DNA from: a virus
Lineage: Duplodnaviria > Caudoviricetes
DNA length: 64,000 nt
Strand: one strand, 5' to 3'
Virus record (IMG/VR): IMGVR_UViG_3300013947_000035
Span: 1 to 64,000 of that record
Both the position numbers and the translations under genes were made by a program. A model generated the notes under the pieces. The model saw only the letters and a program-made list of their open reading frames with translations, was not told where the DNA came from and ran no database searches. This document shows positions 3,604 through 54,578 of the stretch, in pieces. Within the stretch, counting starts at the first letter, position 1. Each line of letters starts with the position of its first letter.

Positions 3604-4737
3604 ATGAAAATTTTTGCAAAAACAGTAGAGCAAGAGGCTCTCGACCAAATAAATAAAATGGCAAATTCGCCCGTCGGACAAAATGCACATATCCGTATTA
3701 TGCCCGATTGTCACGCTGGCGCAGGTTGCGTTATCGGCACAACTATGCGTATAATAGATAAGGTTTGTCCGAATCTCGTCGGCGTTGATATCGGCTGTGG
3801 TGTAGATTATGTCGAGACCGATATCGATTTCGCTTCGAGATGTGACGAACTCGATTCCGTTATCAGACAAAATATACCCTGCGGAATGGAAACGCATAAA
3901 ACCCCGCAAGATTACGATTTTAGCGACCTTCGTTGTTGGGATAAACTCAAAAAAGAAACCCAAGACCTCGCTAAAACCGCTCTCGGAACACTTGGTGGCG
4001 GAAACCACTTCATCGAAGCATACGATAACGGCGGGCTTTCCGTTCATAGCGGCTCTCGAAATATCGGTTGGCGCGTTGCCGAATACTATCAAAATCTCGC
4101 AATCAAGCATTGCAATCACGATTTGTATTTGAAACAGCTCGAACAACTCAAAAATATAGAACCGCAAAATCGTCAACAGTGGCTCAATGAACACAAACTC
4201 AAAGTCGATAAAGAACTCGCTTATCTCGAAGGCGACGATATGCAGGACTATCTTCACGACATCGCCGTTATGCAACGTTTTGCGAATGCGAACAGAAAAC
4301 GTATGCTTGATGTAATCGTTTCAAAAATGGGCGGCGTCATTAAAACGCATATAAACTCGATTCACAACTATATCGATGTCGAGAACAAGATTCTTCGCAA
4401 AGGCGCAATTTCGGCGCTTGACGGGCAAATACTCGTGATTCCGCTCAATATGCGCGACGGATTGCTCATATGCAAAGGTAAAGGCAATCCCGATTGGAAT
4501 TTTTCTGCGCCTCACGGGGCTGGAAGACTCTATTCGCGTAAAAAGGCAAAGGAACTCTTTACCGTTGACGATTATGCGAAAGCAATGGACGGAATCTATA
4601 CCACCTGTGTGAATGAAGATACTCTCGATGAAGCGCCGTTCGCGTACAAGGACTACAAGGAAATAATGGAATGCGTCGAACCCACTGTCGAGATTCTCGA
4701 AAGACGAATTCCGATATATAATTTTAAGGCGAACTGA
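3604..4737 (+). CDS. rtcB: RtcB family RNA ligase
   Basis: IMPDCHAG, GVDIGCG, GTLGGGNHFIE, HSGSR, HGAGR, DEAPFAYK motifs. Confidence 0.95.
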   Translation: MKIFAKTVEQEALDQINKMANSPVGQNAHIRIMPDCHAGAGCVIGTTMRIIDKVCPNLVGVDIGCGVDYVETDIDFASRCDELDSVIRQNIPCGMETHKTPQDYDFSDLRCWDKLKKETQDLAKTALGTLGGGNHFIEAYDNGGLSVHSGSRNIGWRVAEYYQNLAIKHCNHDLYLKQLEQLKNIEPQNRQQWLNEHKLKVDKELAYLEGDDMQDYLHDIAVMQRFANANRKRMLDVIVSKMGGVIKTHINSIHNYIDVENKILRKGAISALDGQILVIPLNMRDGLLICKGKGNPDWNFSAPHGAGRLYSRKKAKELFTVDDYAKAMDGIYTTCVNEDTLDEAPFAYKDYKEIMECVEPTVEILERRIPIYNFKAN

Positions 4738-4748
4738 GAAGGTGTAAA

Positions 4749-5321
4749 ATGAACAATAGGTTAAATCTTTACAAAAAACCGCAATATGCGGGACCGTTTG
4801 CAAAAGAACTCGAACTCATTCAAGGGCGATATATCCGCGAACAAACCCGTCTCGCAATCGAACATTTTCCTAAATATTTCTACGACGTGATGTCGAGTTC
4901 AACGGGGAAATATCACGCGGAAGGCGAAACGCTTTATCTTCATACTCGGCGCGATGCCATACTCGGCGCAGATATTGTCAATCTCAAAATGTTTGAACTG
5001 TCGCCCGTCGAAAAAGACCTCGTAATCGCGGCACTCATTCTTCACGACTGTTGTAAGTACGGTATGAACGATACCCCGTCTGAATACGTTTTGCATTCGC
5101 ATCCGATACTGGCAAGCCAATTCGTATGGTCCGTATGCGAACCCGAATTCGCAGAAAAAGTCGCGCCACTTGTTGCCGCACATTCGGGGCAATGGACGAG
5201 TTCGAGATATTCCGAAATCGAATTGCCCGAACCGAAAACGAAACTGGAAAAAATCGTACACCTTGTCGATTATATTGCTTCACGCAGATATATCGAAATA
5301 AAAATAGAGGAGAAACTATGA
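4749..5321 (+). CDS. HD-domain phosphohydrolase
   Basis: SSTGKYH...H...LHDCCKYG...H...HLVD pattern. Confidence 0.85.
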   Translation: MNNRLNLYKKPQYAGPFAKELELIQGRYIREQTRLAIEHFPKYFYDVMSSSTGKYHAEGETLYLHTRRDAILGADIVNLKMFELSPVEKDLVIAALILHDCCKYGMNDTPSEYVLHSHPILASQFVWSVCEPEFAEKVAPLVAAHSGQWTSSRYSEIELPEPKTKLEKIVHLVDYIASRRYIEIKIEEKL

Positions 5322-6403
5322 ACAACGAACAAAGTATTTTTGACCTCTTGCCCGAAGATGATAAAATGAAAAATCATTTGGAGAGAGAAAAATCAATAGA
5401 TTGGAAATGGAGATTCGCCGACTATCCTCCTAAAAATGGCTTGAAAGTTTTTTCTTGCTTTGCTTGTGGTGGGGGTAGTACAATGGGATATAAACTTGCA
5501 GGGTGCGATGTAATTGGAGATTGTGAACTCGACAAAAGGATGAACGATGTCTATGTCAAAAACCATCATCCAAAGTACAACTATCTTATGGATATTCGAG
5601 ATTTTAACAATCTTGACAACCTACCCGAAGAACTTTATCATCTTGATATTCTTGATGGCTCACCGCCTTGCTCAACATTTAGTATGGCAGGAGAACGAGA
5701 GAATGCTTGGGGTAAAGAAAAGAAATTCCGAGAGGGGCAAAAAGTGCAAACTCTTGATGACCTTGTGTTTGTCTTTATAGAAACTGTTGCAAAATTAAGA
5801 CCAAAGGTTGCGATTATGGAGAATGTGGAGGGATTACTTTTAGGCAGTGCTTGGAAGTATGTCAAACAAATCTATAAAATGTTCCACGATATAGGCTACA
5901 AAGTGCGGCACGAACTCTTAAAAGGCGAAGATATGGGCGTACCACAAACTCGACATCGTGTATTCTTTGTAGCAACAAGATTAGACTTTGACTTGCAAGA
6001 TATTGACCTCAACTTCTACTATGAGCCTATAAAATATGGCGATTTTAAGACCGACCACGAAAAGATTGCAAAGGGCAAGATGAGCGAGGCAATAAAACAA
6101 ATTCGCCCAAATGAAGCCGTAAACGAATGTATGATGCGTGTCTATGGTGTTAATAGTGGCATAACCCATAGAGTGGTTAGAGAAAGCGATATATATCCCA
6201 CACAAATAGCAGGACACGGAGATATATGGACAGAAAAAGGCAATCACCCAAGCGATGAAGATGTACTTCACGCACAATCATTCCCCGAAGATTACGATTT
6301 GGGCAAAGAAAAATCTGAATATATATGCGGAATGAGTGTGCCACCACTAATGATTAAAAGGCTTGTAACAAGACTTATCGATAGCGGAATATTCAATAAA
6401 TGA
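5318..6403 (+). CDS. DNA (cytosine-5) methyltransferase
   Basis: FACGGG, GSPPC, ENV, QTRHRVF and GMSVPP motifs; GAGGAG RBS before ATG 5318. Confidence 0.93.
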   Translation: MNNEQSIFDLLPEDDKMKNHLEREKSIDWKWRFADYPPKNGLKVFSCFACGGGSTMGYKLAGCDVIGDCELDKRMNDVYVKNHHPKYNYLMDIRDFNNLDNLPEELYHLDILDGSPPCSTFSMAGERENAWGKEKKFREGQKVQTLDDLVFVFIETVAKLRPKVAIMENVEGLLLGSAWKYVKQIYKMFHDIGYKVRHELLKGEDMGVPQTRHRVFFVATRLDFDLQDIDLNFYYEPIKYGDFKTDHEKIAKGKMSEAIKQIRPNEAVNECMMRVYGVNSGITHRVVRESDIYPTQIAGHGDIWTEKGNHPSDEDVLHAQSFPEDYDLGKEKSEYICGMSVPPLMIKRLVTRLIDSGIFNK

Positions 6404-9809: not shown

Positions 9810-10031
9810 ATGAAAAAAGAAACACTTAAACAACAACAAATTCGACTCGACGGCGAAAAGTGGATGCGTAGTATCGCAACCGCTTGCGACCAATCGGGAA
9901 TGATGTACTACTGCGAGGGATGTTCTCATTCCAACGGCTATCATTGTGATGTCACTCAAGACGAACGCGTTGCGGGTTCGCTCTGCGCTCGCTCTTGCAG
10001 ACGAGTCAAAGGGGGTAGCGATAATCAATGA
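9810..10031 (+). CDS. small Cys-rich protein
   Basis: six Cys; GAGAGGT RBS. Confidence 0.65.
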   Translation: MKKETLKQQQIRLDGEKWMRSIATACDQSGMMYYCEGCSHSNGYHCDVTQDERVAGSLCARSCRRVKGGSDNQ

Positions 10032-10699
10032 AGAAAGATGAAAAACTCAAAAAGTATTTCGCCGAACTCGAAATCCCCGACGAAGATATAATCGGTCACA
10101 GATTCGGGCTTTATACAGTAACGAGCCGTTGCGCGTCCGTTAACGAAGGCAATTCCGTTACCGAACCGACATATGTCGTAACTTACGGTGAGGGCGAAGA
10201 CGCTCTTATCTCGCAATCGGACCTTCTCGCTTGCCGATTCTTGTCTCGCAAAGACGGTAACCCGCCTACTATTCGTCGCTACTGTGTGAAGAATTACGGC
10301 TCACTCACCAACTTCGACTATGCGAAATACGGCATCGAGACTTGTTCGTATTGCGGTCTGCCGTCCGTCTACGCAAAAGGCTTGTGCAGACCTTGCCACT
10401 CTCGCGCTCATACTCGCGTCGGACTCGAATACCAAGCCGATGACGCGCCGCACAACAAACTCACCCGACTTTCAAAGGACAGCCCCGAATACGAAGTCAA
10501 GAAGGCAATGCTTATGCTCTCGAAGTCGGCGCCGTATGCAGACGAGATGCGCAATCTCTATCTCGACGGATACACCTATCAACAAATCGCAAACAAATAC
10601 GGCGTCACCCGCCAACGTGTATATCAGATTCTACACAAGGTCTATGTGAACGGTGGCAAAGTCGGTCGTCCGCCGAAGAAGAAAGACGGCTTGCTGTAA
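10028..10699 (+). CDS. Zn-finger plus C-terminal sigma70-region-4-like HTH regulator
   Basis: CSYC...CRPCH; GYTYQQIANKYGVTRQRVYQIL. Confidence 0.75.
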   Translation: MKKDEKLKKYFAELEIPDEDIIGHRFGLYTVTSRCASVNEGNSVTEPTYVVTYGEGEDALISQSDLLACRFLSRKDGNPPTIRRYCVKNYGSLTNFDYAKYGIETCSYCGLPSVYAKGLCRPCHSRAHTRVGLEYQADDAPHNKLTRLSKDSPEYEVKKAMLMLSKSAPYADEMRNLYLDGYTYQQIANKYGVTRQRVYQILHKVYVNGGKVGRPPKKKDGLL

Positions 10700-33039: not shown

Positions 33040-33834
33040 ATGTTAGGAGCAATTATCGGCGATATTGTGGGTTCAAGATTCGAATTCCACAATATAAAAA
33101 CAAAAAAATTTAAGTTATTCACAAAAGATTCGCGTCCTACTGACGATTCAATTATGACGGCGGCAGTTGACGATTGTTTGCTCAGAGGTTATCAAAACAA
33201 TCCCGCAGACATTGTAAACACGCTGAAGGAATGGGGCGAGGGATATCCGAATGCAGGATATGGTGCACGTTTCTATTACTGGGTGCTTGGCGATGAGACA
33301 GAGCCGTATTATAGCTACGGTAACGGAGCGGCAATGCGCGTGAGCGGTGTCGGCTGGTTCGCAAAATCTGAAGAAGAAGTAAAAATGTTGTCGAAAGCGG
33401 TTACGGAAGTGACTCATAATCATCCCGAAGGTTTGAAGGGTGCGGAAGTGACAGCTATGTGTGTATATTATGCACGAATCGGAAAGAGTAAAGAGTTCAT
33501 CCGCGATTATATTTATTCGCAATATCCCGAAACGGCGACGCTCGATTATGAAGAATTGAGAAGAACGTATTATCACGGTGAAGAAATTTGTCAGAATACG
33601 GTCCCGCAAGCATTGTTTTGCTTCTTGATTTCGGACTCGTTTGAAGATTGTTTGAGAACGACTATATCTATTGGCGGCGACTGCGATACGACGGCGGCGA
33701 TTTCGTGCGCGGTTGCGGAAGCGTTTTACGGGATTCCGCGAGATATTGTAGACGAAGCTTGGGAATATATTCCGCAAGATATAAGAAAATTGCTGACTGT
33801 TTGTTATTGGAATTATCGTACTATAAGAAAGTAA
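33040..33834 (+). CDS. ADP-ribosylglycohydrolase (DraG/ARH family)
   Basis: GAIIGDIVGS, TDDSIMT, SYGNGAAMR, THNHPEG, GGDCDTTAAI motifs. Confidence 0.93.
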   Translation: MLGAIIGDIVGSRFEFHNIKTKKFKLFTKDSRPTDDSIMTAAVDDCLLRGYQNNPADIVNTLKEWGEGYPNAGYGARFYYWVLGDETEPYYSYGNGAAMRVSGVGWFAKSEEEVKMLSKAVTEVTHNHPEGLKGAEVTAMCVYYARIGKSKEFIRDYIYSQYPETATLDYEELRRTYYHGEEICQNTVPQALFCFLISDSFEDCLRTTISIGGDCDTTAAISCAVAEAFYGIPRDIVDEAWEYIPQDIRKLLTVCYWNYRTIRK

Positions 33835-49071: not shown

Positions 49072-49248
49072 AACTTTTTCAAAGAAATTTGGCATAAAGT
49101 ATTGACTTTCTCGGGCAAAGGGTATAATATCGTATCATAACCTCGTATTATTGAGTAGTGCCGATAATTCGAGAAATACTAATAATGCGAGGGCAATCCT
49201 CTAATCAAGACCACGCACTACAATAGGTCAAGATTGGAGGATTTTTTT

Positions 49249-50316
49249 ATGAAAGCATTCAAGACCAGAATATACCCAAATGCGGAACAAACCGTTTTAA
49301 TCGAAAAGACTTTCGGTTGTTGTCGCTTTGTCTATAATAATGGTCTTGAATGTAAAATTGATGCCTATAAGAAAGATAAAACGAACCTATCTGCTTATGA
49401 TTTGATAAAAAGAATCACAACTCTTAAAAAAGAATTCGAGTGGTTGAAAGAAGTCGAATTGCACACATTGCAGCAGTCGATTCTTGATTTAGAAAAAGCA
49501 TATAAGAACTTTTTTAGAGAACATAAGGGATTCCCTAAATTCAAGAAGAAAGGCGACAAAGATAGTTTTAGGACGTTTAATATGCGTTTTGTATCACGTC
49601 ATTTCATTTATCTTCCGAAAATTGGAGCGGTAAAAATTGCCGAAAAGATAAAAAAGAAGTGGAGCATACATAATGCGACTATAAGCAAAAGAGCAGGGAA
49701 GTATTTTATCTCGCTATTAATCGATTACGAATCACCAAAAGTCCAAAAGACAGGTGAAGTTGTCGGAATCGATTTAGGCATTAAGACATTTGCGACCTTG
49801 TCAGATGGAACTAAATATGAGAACCCAAAGACATTAAGCAAATACGAGGACAAGATTGCAAGATATCAACGACAATTAAGTCGAACTCAAAAAGGAAGTA
49901 ACAATCGCAAAAAGGTTAAAGAGAAATTAGCCCGATTGCATTTGAAAGTATCTAACATTCGGCAAGACTATTTGCATAAAATGAGCCGCGAGATAGCCAA
50001 TCGTTACTCGTTTGTTGCGATAGAGGATTTAAATATTGCAGGAATGGTTAAGAATCACAATTTAGCCAAGAGCATATCCGATTGCAGTTGGGGCGAATTC
50101 GTCCGTATGCTCGAATATAAATGCTCGTGGTATGGTTGTGAACTGCGTAAAATCGGTCGATTTGAACCCAGTAGCAAGTTGTGTTCAAATTGCGGATATA
50201 AGATGAACGAAATTCCGTTAAATATCCGAAAATGGACTTGTCCTAATTGCGGGACGCACCACGACCGAGACGTAAACGCCGCAATAAATATTTTGAATAT
50301 AGCACAAGAAAAATAA
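49249..50316 (+). mobile_element. tnpB: TnpB RNA-guided endonuclease (IS200/IS605 or IS607 OrfB type), no TnpA nearby
   Basis: RIYPN HTH, GIDLG, IEDL, CSNCG/CPNCG Zn finger, HDRDVNAA; RuvC D-E-D intact. Confidence 0.95.
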
Positions 50317-50374: not shown

Positions 50375-50490
50375 TTGAAAAGAAGAATGACATAGCACTC
50401 TCAGGTAGAGAGGAAGAGCCTGTTGATACTGTGGACATTAGTTCACTTGAGCAGGAAAATCTTGAATAGGTTACGACCGAAAGAGAACCT
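50375..50490 (+). ncRNA. omegaRNA-like guide RNA
   Basis: GCCTGT...GAGCAGGAA pattern typical of TnpB right ends; CTCTC/GAGAG stem. Confidence 0.55.
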
Positions 50491-50509
50491 TAATATATTG
50501 AGGTATATC

Positions 50510-51217
50510 GTGACAAATTTTGACGAAATCGAGAAAGAGCAAGAGCAAAAAACCGAAAGCGAGAAATCGTTGACGGCGAAAACTGCTAACGTTCCCGAAC
50601 TCGCAACCGAAAAGCGAACGGCTGAATCTGTCATCGAAGCACAACGCCAAATCAACTACGAGAAGATTTCCGAAAACAAGGACTTCCAAGAACGCTCGGC
50701 AGTAATCGATACTCGTGCTGTCGGCGCAAAACTTGACAAGGCTGACAACGAAACCTACCAACAGGAACTCGAAAACCAGTACGCTCGATACGAACTCGAC
50801 AAAAAGAAAGAGGCTCTTGACTACCGAATGAAACTCGAACGCAAGACGACCAAAGAAAAGGTCAAAGCGGACGTGGCAGAGGTCAAGAGAACGATTGCGC
50901 TTCAACGCTATGGCTACCTTTACAAGCCCACAAAAAAAGAAGTGTTGGACGCGGACGGTAACACTGTCAAAGACGAGAACGGAAACGTAGTGTACCAAGA
51001 GATACCCGCAAAAGACTTCACGCCCAGCAAATTCATAAACTGGACGAAAGAGTTTGCGAACTGGTACGGGAACTTGTCAAAATCAATGCAAAACGTAATC
51101 AAAACCACACTCAAAATTCTGTTTTTCGGTGGAATTGCGGCACTGCTCGTTTGGGGTGCTGTATCTGGAATCAAATGGCTCATCGATAGCGGAATCTTGG
51201 TCGGAATTGCTAAATAA
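50510..51217 (+). CDS. coiled-coil protein with C-terminal TM
   Basis: GAGGT RBS, GTG start. Confidence 0.75.
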   Translation: MTNFDEIEKEQEQKTESEKSLTAKTANVPELATEKRTAESVIEAQRQINYEKISENKDFQERSAVIDTRAVGAKLDKADNETYQQELENQYARYELDKKKEALDYRMKLERKTTKEKVKADVAEVKRTIALQRYGYLYKPTKKEVLDADGNTVKDENGNVVYQEIPAKDFTPSKFINWTKEFANWYGNLSKSMQNVIKTTLKILFFGGIAALLVWGAVSGIKWLIDSGILVGIAK

Positions 51218-51240: not shown

Positions 51241-51561
51241 ATGGAAAACGTAAACAGCGTAGAGATTGTCGACTTTGACGAACGTATGCGAATCAAGCTT
51301 GCGGAATGTGACAAGTTCTTCAACGGCAAAGATGCCGCTATTGAAAGAGTCGAACAAGCACGAACTGAACTTGAAGCCGCAGAAAATGCGCTCGCAGAGT
51401 ATGATAATGTCGAATATGTAGAAAAACTCACAGCATATCGTGCTGATTTGGCTCGTAAACTCGGCGTAGTAGAACCCGAAGTCGTAGCGGAGGCGTGTGA
51501 TGAACAAGTTGTCGAACAAGAACCCGCACCCGTCATCGAATCTGTGGCACCGCTTTTCTAA
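51241..51561 (+). CDS. acidic coiled-coil protein
   Basis: AGGAG RBS. Confidence 0.75.
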   Translation: MENVNSVEIVDFDERMRIKLAECDKFFNGKDAAIERVEQARTELEAAENALAEYDNVEYVEKLTAYRADLARKLGVVEPEVVAEACDEQVVEQEPAPVIESVAPLF

Positions 51562-52498
51562 TACACATCATCAAAACAGGGGAAGTTTTAGTTCTTGGCT
51601 AAAAACATTTTGTAAGGGATTCGGATTACTTCTGACTTACGAAATCATAGAGGAACTTCTCGAAGAAGCAATAGCCTACACTATAACAGCCATCATCGCG
51701 AAAGCGGTATCATTTTTGTTAGTGGTATTGCTAACGCAAACAGTAAAAATAACAGCAAAGGGAATAGCAAAGGGAATCACAATAGCACTTAAACCTGCGG
51801 TTAAACAGCTTACCTACAAAGAAGGTAACGACAAAATAACTAAAATATTGAGGTTTATAAATATGTGTAAGGAAAAAATCAAGGAAAATAAATTCTTGAA
51901 CTTTTTGAAGAGAAATCCCAAATCGATTTTGGGTATTATTTCTGGTTTTATTGCTTCTCTTGCAGCTGGCGCAGGCACAACTTGCGGTCTCGTTATCGGT
52001 AATGTTGAACTTCCGCTTTGGGCAAATATTTGCTTCGGCGTTATCGTTTGGCTCGTATTGTTTATTGTCACCGCAATCGGCGTAAAAAATGCAGGTTTTG
52101 AAGGCGTTGCAAAATATCGGTTGAGAAAACTTGCCGAAAAACTTGGTTTTGGCAAAGCGGCAGAAGAACTCGAAAAAGTCGAAAAAGCAATCGAAGCCGA
52201 AGATGAGGCAAAAGCAGAACAAGAAAAACTCGCTCTCGAACAAGCAAAAGCGAAATATCAAGAAGCTTGGAGAATCGACATTACAAGCAAAAAAATTGAT
52301 ATAAACGTTTCGCTTGAAGATTATATCGCCCAAAGACAAGCCGAAGAAAAAGAAGCGGCTGAAAAAGCAGAGCAAGAGAAACTCGAAGCCGAAGCAGAGC
52401 AAGAGAAACTCGCAGTCGAAAACGCGTTCTTGGCGGCAGTTTCAAACGGATATGCGGGCTCGTTCGATACTTGGAAAGCAGAGCAAGTAACTAAATAA
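51500..52498 (+). CDS. membrane protein with C-terminal coiled coil
   Basis: GGAGG RBS, 3-4 hydrophobic segments. Confidence 0.75.
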   Translation: MNKLSNKNPHPSSNLWHRFSNTHHQNRGSFSSWLKTFCKGFGLLLTYEIIEELLEEAIAYTITAIIAKAVSFLLVVLLTQTVKITAKGIAKGITIALKPAVKQLTYKEGNDKITKILRFINMCKEKIKENKFLNFLKRNPKSILGIISGFIASLAAGAGTTCGLVIGNVELPLWANICFGVIVWLVLFIVTAIGVKNAGFEGVAKYRLRKLAEKLGFGKAAEELEKVEKAIEAEDEAKAEQEKLALEQAKAKYQEAWRIDITSKKIDINVSLEDYIAQRQAEEKEAAEKAEQEKLEAEAEQEKLAVENAFLAAVSNGYAGSFDTWKAEQVTK

Positions 52499-52576
52499 GA
52501 TACCAAACCTAATCCCCTAATGATGAAATCTCGCAGATAGATTCGTTAGGGGATTTTCATAACCAAAAGGGAAAAT

Positions 52577-53311
52577 ATGAATAAGAAAGTTTTGCATACG
52601 ATGATAATCCTCTGCTGGGTGTTTCTTGGCGCATATGCGTTATTAAAATTAATCCCGCAGTTGGCTGATAAATTTGTGATTGCTGTCAATAACGAGCGTA
52701 TAGTTGAGGCGGGTAATTTTGTTGACGAACACGTTTGGTTACAACAAATCGTATATGGACTGACGACATTGCTTACATATCATTTCTATTTATGCGCTTG
52801 TTGTCATAAATGGCGTTTGTCTTGGAAACAATACATCGTACTTATTGTTGCCATTATTGCCGCAAACACATTGAAATATTATGTCTCTGAAATCGCTGTC
52901 CAAGTAAATGTATTAATAATGGTAATTTATCCGTTCTTATTGAAAAGCGATTATAGAACATTTATAATTATATTCATAACACATTCTGTTGGGCAATTAT
53001 TGATTAGTTTTATTCGAGGGGCAGAAATGTCGCTTGCAGACTGCAATACATTGACGTGCCTAATATGTTGTTTAGATATGTATGTATGGCTATTGCTATA
53101 CTACTTATATGCAAATCTATATAAAGGAGAAAAATTTATGGGTAACGTTGCGCCTCCGTTTTGGGGCAAAATGAACAAAGAAATCGACGCAGAAATTGCG
53201 TCTCTCGACAAAAAGATTGCCGAGTGCAAGGACACAGAACAACGCAAGAAATACGAAGCTAAAAGGGCTGAATATGAAGAAATGCGCGTTAAAACTTCTG
53301 ACGAGAAGTAA
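52577..53311 (+). CDS. multipass (~6 TM) membrane protein with charged C-terminal tail
   Basis: hydrophobic segments; internal AAAGGAG-ATG at about 53138. Confidence 0.8.
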   Translation: MNKKVLHTMIILCWVFLGAYALLKLIPQLADKFVIAVNNERIVEAGNFVDEHVWLQQIVYGLTTLLTYHFYLCACCHKWRLSWKQYIVLIVAIIAANTLKYYVSEIAVQVNVLIMVIYPFLLKSDYRTFIIIFITHSVGQLLISFIRGAEMSLADCNTLTCLICCLDMYVWLLLYYLYANLYKGEKFMGNVAPPFWGKMNKEIDAEIASLDKKIAECKDTEQRKKYEAKRAEYEEMRVKTSDEK

Positions 53312-53924
53312 AATCGTTATAAAGCACGCCCTGCACTGGTTATCGGTGCAGGGTAAACTTTATTTGCGAGGGATTCCACAATTATTCTTGGTAACAATAT
53401 TGTTGATTCCTGCCGCATATTTTACAGGCAAATATATCGAAGCAATTTTCCAAATTATTGCGTTGTTTGCGCTTCGGTATAAATTCCCTAAAACTTATCA
53501 CGCCGATACGACTATGAAATGTACTTTTGTGACGTTAAGTATCGGGTATCTTGCAATTCCGAGAGTTTTGCCTACGAACGTTGCTTTGTTTAGCGCGATA
53601 TTTGTCAGTTTCGTTATCGCATTTCTCTCGTGGTTGGCACAAGAATTTATCGACCGAAAGAAACGCATAGCCGAACTCGAAGCCGCGCCTGTTTCCGAGC
53701 CATTATCGTTCACAACTTGTTCGCGAGAAGAATTCGATATGTTGTGTGTAAATAACGGAATCAAGTCAAGCCGCATAGAATATGTTTGGGATTTACTTCG
53801 AGGCAAATTATCAACATCTGAAATGATGGACAAATATTGCGTAGCCGAAAAAACAATTAGTCAAGACCGTTGGCGATACAGAAAAAGATTTTCTAACCCT
53901 ATTGACAACGGCGAATTGAAATGA
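53274..53924 (+). CDS. AgrB-like membrane peptidase fused to a C-terminal HTH
   Basis: LRYKFPKTYHADTTMKC (His...Cys+7) within a 4-TM region; C-terminal STSEMMDKYCVAEKTISQDRWRYRKRF. Confidence 0.7.
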   Translation: MKKCALKLLTRSKIVIKHALHWLSVQGKLYLRGIPQLFLVTILLIPAAYFTGKYIEAIFQIIALFALRYKFPKTYHADTTMKCTFVTLSIGYLAIPRVLPTNVALFSAIFVSFVIAFLSWLAQEFIDRKKRIAELEAAPVSEPLSFTTCSREEFDMLCVNNGIKSSRIEYVWDLLRGKLSTSEMMDKYCVAEKTISQDRWRYRKRFSNPIDNGELK

Positions 53925-53930
53925 TATTAT
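53902..53930 (+). promoter_or_regulatory. promoter of the RNA island
   Basis: TTGACA-N17-TATTAT with TG extension. Confidence 0.8.
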
Positions 53931-54231: not shown

Positions 54232-54312
54232 GGGGTTGAGAATGGTTTCGATTGCACATAAAGCCGAAGCGCACTGTGCAAGAAACGAGTTCGATTCTCG
54301 TCAACTCCACCA
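54232..54312 (+). ncRNA. 81-nt tmRNA-like RNA: tRNA-like domain only, no tag ORF
   Basis: GGGGTTG/CAACTCC acceptor stem with G3-U70, GGTTTCGA D-loop, TTGCACA/TGTGCAA helix, ACGAG-TTCGATT-CTCGT T-arm, ACCA. Confidence 0.8.
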
Positions 54313-54502: not shown

Positions 54503-54578
54503 GCAGGTATGGCGCAATCGGCAGCGCAACTGATTTGTAATCAGTCGGTTGTCTGTTCGAGTCAGACTTCCAGCACCA
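54503..54578 (+). tRNA. tRNA-Thr(UGU), two acceptor-stem mismatches
   Basis: GCGC D-stem, ACTGA-TTTGTAA-TCAGT anticodon arm, GTCTG-TTCGAGT-CAGAC T-arm, CCA. Confidence 0.85.

Follow-up and report, generated by a model that had tools for sequence, protein, structure and literature searches.

The stretch of DNA analyzed here (64,000 nucleotides, called the window) consists of bases 1-64000 of the 78,008-bp IMG/VR virus record IMGVR_UViG_3300013947_000035 (Duplodnaviria; Caudoviricetes), which is rated complete by CheckV. The finding concerns three reading frames on its + strand, named X, P and B. X (52577-53137) encodes a six-helix membrane protein of unknown family, P (53138-53311) encodes a 57-aa peptide (MGNVAPPFWGK...) which is in frame with X in this phage, and B (53274-53924) encodes a 216-aa protein in which an AgrB-like membrane peptidase domain is fused to a helix-turn-helix (HTH). 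X and P together make up one open reading frame (ORF) of 244 aa (52577-53311), which overlaps the ORF of B by 38 nt in a different frame. The internal Shine-Dalgarno sequence AAAGGAG lies on the + strand at 53123-53129, with its GGAG 8 nt 5′ of the ATG at 53138 where P begins. The four-helix membrane domain of B (53367-53648, residues about 32-125) was delimited by Pfam AgrB and hhalign and holds the putative catalytic segment (53475-53522), with Arg68 at 53475-53477, His76 at 53499-53501 and Cys83 at 53520-53522. The HTH of B (53712-53921, residues about 147-216) was assigned from the Pfam matches of its relatives, profile matches to PDB and AlphaFold2 (AF2) modelling.

The AgrB-like domain was recognized by the Pfam model AgrB (PF04647), which matches residues 36-117 of B with 25.3 bits (cut-off 23, E 1.1e-5), the match spanning profile positions 31-116 of 185 only. 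The motif LRYKFPKTYHADTTMKC occupies residues 67-83, and within it His76 and Cys83 are seven residues apart. A start of B at the upstream TTG 53196 is not needed because the homologues begin at the same MKKC. The same Pfam model matches 29 of 30 close relatives of B and 64 of 67 diverse relatives, the best of the latter at E 4.1e-12. The diverse relatives are 18-38% identical to B, and in their alignment (n=67) His76 and Cys83 are the only invariant columns while Arg68 is kept at 96%. The pattern R-x2-F-x-K-[TQ]-[YFW]-H-x6-C was found in nearly all representatives of the B family, a few having H-x5-C or longer loops. For comparison with canonical AgrB, three genes were taken from genomes of the bacterial family of a metagenome-assembled genome (MAG) labelled Ruminococcus. 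The B family aligned with these three proteins in hhalign at 94.9% probability (E 4.8e-8), and Arg68, His76 and Cys83 of B fall on the canonical Arg, His75 and Cys82. The catalytic dyad of AgrB consists of the invariant His77 and Cys84, while its R70 touches the substrate AgrD (PMC10482373). The invariance of His76 and Cys83 at such low identity argues for a catalysis that has probably been kept and not for a mere membrane anchor. Residues 36-117 of B are thus a shortened AgrB-type Cys/His membrane peptidase domain whose activity is predicted from sequence.

The AF2 model of B (pLDDT, the predicted local distance difference test score, of 67) has an N-terminal helix at 2-31 followed by membrane-length helices at 34-51, 54-70, 77-94 and 101 to about 122. 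AgrB was not among the PDB matches, neither in the profile search of sequences nor in the fold searches, and Foldseek and VIA-align gave for the model generic helical bundles or weak sigma, TrpR and KorA rows only. No high-resolution structure of AgrB exists according to a 2023 review (PMC10482373). Beyond helix 4 of B there is an acidic juxtamembrane motif, in which D127 is Asp in 67% and Glu in 15% of the 67 diverse relatives, and then the HTH.

The C-terminal domain of B (151-205) is modelled as four helices (151-160, 165-176, 181-188 and 192-205) with a pLDDT of about 80. B alone has no Pfam HTH match. Among the 67 relatives, Sigma70_r4_2 (PF08281) was matched in 7 (best 4.9e-6) and GerE (PF00196) in 4 (1.1e-4), along with HTH_23, HTH_28, HTH_30 and KORA. 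The family profile searched against PDB retrieved the HTH domains of EvgA, DevR, VraR, GerE, NarL and VpsT at E 0.008-0.2 only, and the top Foldseek rows of the model, which are weak, were extracytoplasmic function (ECF) sigma factors, TrpR and KorA. The C-terminus of B is on this basis a probable HTH of LuxR/GerE (sigma-70 region 4) type, and DNA binding is predicted. The likeness to LuxR/FixJ/NarL and sigma-70 region 4 effectors lies in this C-terminal four-helix domain, as judged from the Pfam matches of relatives and the profile matches to structures. In LuxR/FixJ/NarL proteins a receiver or autoinducer-binding domain is attached, whereas in B the HTH is joined to a membrane peptidase domain.

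X was characterized through its 77 homologues and the AF2 model of the X-P ORF (pLDDT 83.6; pTM, the predicted template modelling score, 0.70). The model has six membrane helices, the first outer loop containing two further short ones, and after these a junction at 182-199 that is disordered and a helical hairpin at 200-216/220-240. Most of the homologues are 244 aa long, and the distant ones have 183-184 aa and end exactly at the start point of P. The invariant residues include C73, W79, P119, R147 and D167 together with the end motif YY-x-Y-x-N-x-Y. No named relative of X was found in Pfam, NCBIfam, PDB or Atlas (the Atlas gave unnamed clusters only), and the best rows of the fold search were helical hairpins covering only the tail, with no specific fold. 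Two candidate identities of X were ruled out by hhalign, namely a hidden second half of AgrB (0.2%) and a relative of B (1.5%).

P opens with the motif MG-x3-PP-hydrophobic-aromatic-G-K, after which comes a hairpin of charged helices, and its length is 45-57 aa across lineages. All 17 listed sites (the window plus 16 loci, with several mutual copies among them) have a GGAG upstream of the start of P, whether P is fused or not, and Met188, the start of P, is retained in the fused X-P forms. The codons spanning this GGAG read Lys-Gly-Glu in some of these relatives and Lys-Glu-Lys in others, yet its nucleotides are preserved, which points to selection on the ribosome site itself. In distant lineages P is a gene by itself, which has a GGAG and an ATG of its own and runs into the start of B; these are the loci L003/L004 (47 aa), L012/L013 (56 aa), L014 (49 aa) and L026 (57 aa). 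In L011 (2182-2334) and L016 (about 1616-1750) an intact P with its own GGAG is nested, in the other frame, inside the apparent X-B ORFs P0136 and P0232, which would represent either dual coding or read-through of a purine-rich and stop-poor stretch. The predicted internal start at ATG 53138 is therefore well supported by comparison, and P appears to be an expressed unit, as judged from its own Shine-Dalgarno sequence and ATG and from the separate or nested genes of relatives. The stand-alone 57-aa proteins P0262 and P0263 were rejected as independent evidence because they are gene-caller choices on the intact X-P frame of close relatives. Cys216 of the X-P tail was rejected as a thiolactone Cys because it is not conserved.

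The order X-(P)-B recurs in the loci examined, and the stop and start codons overlap within the cassette. True single-chain proteins in which X, a linker and B follow each other were found in five clusters below 50% identity (P0188, P0228, P0251, P0253 and P0254), with His and Cys kept, and their N-terminal halves align with the X profile at 89.8% in hhalign. The N-terminal halves of P0136, P0205 and P0232 align with it at 99.8%. P0136 and P0232 were rejected as simple X-B fusions because their linkers are the other-frame reading of the nested P gene, and they are for this reason weaker Rosetta-stone evidence than the clade of true fusions at L017. Given that genuine X-B fusions occur as well, X, P and B are parts of a single module, and B is the last gene of an X-P-B cassette whose translational coupling is read from the overlapping codons. 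A sequence-only reading of the window had proposed that B has about four transmembrane helices with an AgrB-like His/Cys motif and an HTH-like C-terminus, that the overlapping upstream gene has about six transmembrane helices, and that an internal AAAGGAG-ATG gives a 57-aa peptide. The Pfam match over the cut-off, the four-helix C-terminal domain with the Sigma70_r4_2 and GerE matches of relatives, the AF2 models of both proteins and the independent P genes of relatives bear this out. That reading had also left the conservation of His and Cys and of the gene pair as points on which it could fail, and the two residues are invariant in the 67 relatives while the genes are coupled and in some lineages fused.

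An exhaustive profile search of metagenomes gave 270 cluster representatives of the B family at 50% identity (E < 1e-3), most of them 180-210 aa long and covering both domains. In the motif scan of IMG/VR, chance matches (L025, L030 and L034) were found besides the real loci. A tblastn search of B against 50,697 deposited phage records (INPHARED) gave no match, and megablast of 24 kb against the INPHARED phages gave none either. In the literature searched there was no AgrB-HTH fusion, the nearest phage precedent being phiCDHM1 with ordinary agr genes. The AgrB-HTH family is widespread in uncultured phages and, as far as this literature goes, was previously undescribed.

Upstream of X there are two membrane proteins with long Glu/Lys/Ala-rich coiled-coil tails (51497-52498 and 50423-51217). 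The first of them, of 333 aa, has a syntenic counterpart ahead of X in L001, L002 and L012 and a weak one in L026, so the conserved block may exceed X-P-B. At L017 a gene of the Acb2/Tad1-hairpin (anti-defence sponge) family (L017:2788-3021) lies about 0.9 kb upstream of the true X-B fusion, with two small genes between them.

B resembles AgrB in the homologous N-terminal two-thirds, the aligned Arg, His and Cys, the same His-x6-Cys spacing, an active site at the cytoplasmic face (probable in B from its topology) and a small peptide gene alongside. It differs in having four membrane helices only, without helices 5-6 and the Pro/Lys loop, and in the fused HTH. The adjoining peptide lies upstream and is not AgrD-like, there is no AgrC or AgrA, B is paired with the six-helix X in the loci examined, and the phages are apparently virulent. 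The Pfam scans of the 78-kb record gave no match to HATPase_c (AgrC kinase) or LytTR (AgrA), and none to AgrD (PF05931), the last being a weak negative as that model matched no control genome either. The expectation that kinase, AgrA and canonical AgrD are missing was thus confirmed, with this reservation for AgrD. The further proposal of the sequence-only reading, that an Agr-type (cyclic) peptide is processed, found no support, as P lacks the organization of AgrD and its Cys is replaced or absent in some relatives. Since helices 5-6, the Pro/Lys loop and the agr partners are absent, B is a new architecture on the AgrB catalytic core and not a canonical AgrB.

Clostridioides difficile phage phiCDHM1 carries host-derived agrB, agrD and agrC (PMC3901668). 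It shares with the present phage an AgrB-family gene borne by a phage; by its published description it differs in that B is truncated, fused to an HTH and surrounded by other partners. Outside agr, the nearest parallels are regulators and factors held at the membrane. ToxR, CadC and BcrR are membrane-bound DNA-binding regulators which act without release; pro-sigma-K with SpoIVFB and RseA with RseP are pairs in which a factor is released by proteolysis, and the protease of sigma-K is modulated by BofA and SpoIVFA. The analogy would be that the membrane retains a domain which binds DNA or is sigma-like, and that a protease is modulated by small membrane partners. In B, unlike pro-sigma-K and RseA, protease and DNA-binding domain are in one polypeptide and the protease is of Cys/His type, not a site-2 metalloprotease; from both groups B is also set apart by its HTH, which is of LuxR/GerE type and C-terminal. 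The arbitrium system (AimP/AimR) offers an analogy only, as P has by eye no N-terminal hydrophobic stretch and models as a hairpin, and the sensor part of B is AgrB-like.

We propose for B the role of a one-component transcription regulator tethered to the membrane, in which AgrB-type cleavage on the cytoplasmic side would determine the output, a reading to which we assign a probability of about 45%. The HTH of B would be in the cytoplasm. Because the HTH must be cytoplasmic and there are four helices, the Arg68/His76 loop and Cys83 at the start of helix 3 would be placed on the cytoplasmic face, and the tail of X and P would be cytoplasmic because X has a basic N-terminus and six helices. The His/Cys loop of B, the X tail and P would then be on the same side of the membrane, as the basic cytoplasmic loops and the C-terminal HTH suggest. 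AgrB itself cuts the charged C-terminal tail off a membrane-associated propeptide of 40-50 aa at the cytosolic face (PMC10482373). The most likely substrate of B would be the juxtamembrane tail of X together with P, and these may take the role of AgrD, being small, adjacently encoded and membrane-associated with a charged helical C-terminus. P may accordingly be an AgrD analogue and not a homologue. Alternatively, B could cut its own tether near the conserved acidic motif past helix 4. Such a cut would release the HTH or change its state. Two arguments favour the cleavage-set regulator: catalytic residues this strictly conserved speak for cleavage of some substrate by B, and the tight coupling of the genes speaks for an involvement of X and P.

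Several observations weigh against this proposal. B is without the C-terminal third of AgrB, the match stopping after helix 4 at profile position 116, and has no counterpart of AgrB helices 5-6 or of the P-x3-P-x2-P...K loop, whose residues P123, P127, P130 and K137 are invariant in the three canonical AgrB proteins; its activity may therefore differ from that of AgrB. The representative P0197 has Pro instead of His, the sole such variant among about 150 representatives. The tether of B is poorly conserved apart from D127, and a fixed self-cleavage site is not evident in it. P is not universal, since only a short X tail is present in L033 and an acidic linker of unrelated sequence in the L017 clade, and for this reason P cannot be the sole substrate. 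The single Cys of P is Thr, Ser or Gln in some relatives and is absent in L012, P has no similarity to AgrD by the PF05931 model, and its layout is different (no order of leader, core and tail).

The same residues and the same gene order may be explained in other ways. B may cut P and so yield a fragment (the N-terminal motif, for instance) which is carried out of the cell, perhaps via X, as an extracellular signal to phages or to the host, while the HTH autoregulates the cassette. Such a signal factory would account for an AgrB-type enzyme tightly coupled to a peptide gene of AgrD size (45-57 aa), for the polytopic X with its conserved polar intramembrane residues, and it has a precedent in the agrB, agrD and agrC genes of phiCDHM1 (PMC3901668). 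We regard it as unlikely, because P has no signal peptide or amphipathic leader/core/tail arrangement and is predicted to be a cytoplasmic helical hairpin, its thiolactone Cys is not conserved, P is absent in some lineages and the 78-kb record has no match to a receptor kinase or AgrA. The genome scan also found no integrase or resolvase, and hence there is no evident lysis-lysogeny switch which such a signal could serve. B could also be a membrane scaffold or DNA tether without regulatory proteolysis, in which the AgrB-like domain is mainly an anchor or a platform with X, and phage DNA is tied to the membrane by the HTH, for replication, packaging or the organization of transcription sites. 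ToxR, CadC and BcrR, as noted, work without release, the segment of B that joins helix 4 to the HTH varies, and in several phages the cassette lies at the junction of structural and DNA-metabolism modules. A pure anchor, on the other hand, would not keep Arg, His and Cys invariant across such divergence, with just one His-to-Pro change in about 150 representatives, and we consider this explanation improbable.

The position of the cassette after the tail genes and the two membrane/coiled-coil proteins, with the 333-aa protein syntenic in relatives, would suit a module for lysis timing, in which X-P-B controls, or is part of, the lysis cassette that closes the late operon, a holin-like role falls to X or to the membrane proteins before it, and B couples the state of the membrane to late transcription. 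In L016 the cassette is directly preceded by a weak NlpC/P60-like gene (L016:1-618, E 7.5e-4) and a 70-aa ORF, and scans of the present genome for Amidase_2, Amidase_3, GH25 and NlpC/P60 gave no standard endolysin at another place. This is distinctly unlikely, given that no holin or endolysin family was detected beside the cassette in the window, that the NlpC/P60 match in L016 is below the cut-off and that X, with six helices and a compact fold modelled with confidence, is atypical for a holin. Very unlikely, finally, is an interference with host quorum sensing, in which B captures or cuts AgrD-type propeptides of the host, silencing host agr or reading host density, and reports through its HTH. 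The only hint of a host is one MAG contig related to the phage, labelled uncultured Ruminococcus sp.; canonical AgrB genes do occur in the bacterial family of this MAG and the catalytic residues of B are those of AgrB. However, of the 61 genomes sampled from that family just 2 had AgrB and the MAG itself had none, the AgrB regions past helix 4 are missing in B, and the phage's own conserved partners and peptide argue for a self-contained system. Among these explanations we retain the membrane-tethered regulator set by cleavage.

Signals which may control the cassette were also searched, all on the + strand. An inverted repeat found by the repeat search at 52511-52555, with 13-nt arms of 92% complementarity, lies between the preceding gene and X and is possibly the terminator of that gene or a regulatory hairpin. 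A GC-rich RNA hairpin of 11-12 bp (53328-53354), obtained by a terminator-like scan, lies inside the 5′ end of B, 17 nt past the stop codon of X-P, and is kept in 7 relatives within the first 30 codons of B. One of its pairs varies between C-G, U-A and U-G via synonymous His and Ser codons, and because such changes fall at synonymous sites the hairpin seems to be selected as an RNA structure, possibly for attenuation or for the control of translational coupling. A TTGACA-17-TATTAT site with TG (53902-53930, consensus scan 11/12) at the end of B faces the downstream RNA island and is a candidate promoter by consensus match. Behind this site and just downstream of B there are a short match to the Rfam transfer-messenger RNA (tmRNA) model at 54232-54312 (56.3 bits, 81 nt spanning model positions 1-374) and a tRNA-Thr(TGT) at 54503-54578. 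The repeats around the cassette are unremarkable, and no operator was identified by the repeat search.

The phage is very poorly annotated, and most other large ORFs are without a Pfam or PHROG match. Those which could be named are an RtcB RNA ligase (3604-4737, E 5e-57), a C5 cytosine methylase (5126-6403), an ADP-ribosylglycohydrolase (33040-33834, E 1e-32) and a 223-aa protein with a sigma-70 region 4/resolvase-type HTH (10028-10699), which is a second protein of sigma region 4. A 360-aa ORF at 49234-50316 looks by eye like TnpB/IS605-family OrfB with a C-terminal zinc ribbon, and this candidate TnpB-like ORF is inserted between the tail genes and the block of membrane proteins.

AgrB has so far been known as a dedicated maker of quorum-sensing peptides. 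Here its minimal four-helix catalytic core occurs with X and usually a small peptide, so that the AgrB fold is used outside agr and B offers a compact model for substrate recognition of AgrB type. P, being fused, separate or nested in the other frame, is an unusually clear case of a small gene which is handled inconsistently by annotation pipelines. It is also conceivable, though we hold it improbable, that X-P-B works as a proteolytic signalling device complete in itself and of a kind new to phages, in which the AgrB-type enzyme cuts the coupled P and thereby directly switches the transcription factor on the same polypeptide, and a fragment of P may also be released as a signal between phages or between phage and host. 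If true, this would be a third kind of peptide-based decision system of phages beside arbitrium and borrowed agr genes. The distribution of the family suggests that many uncultured gut phages may couple a membrane event to transcription by a route that is so far unstudied.

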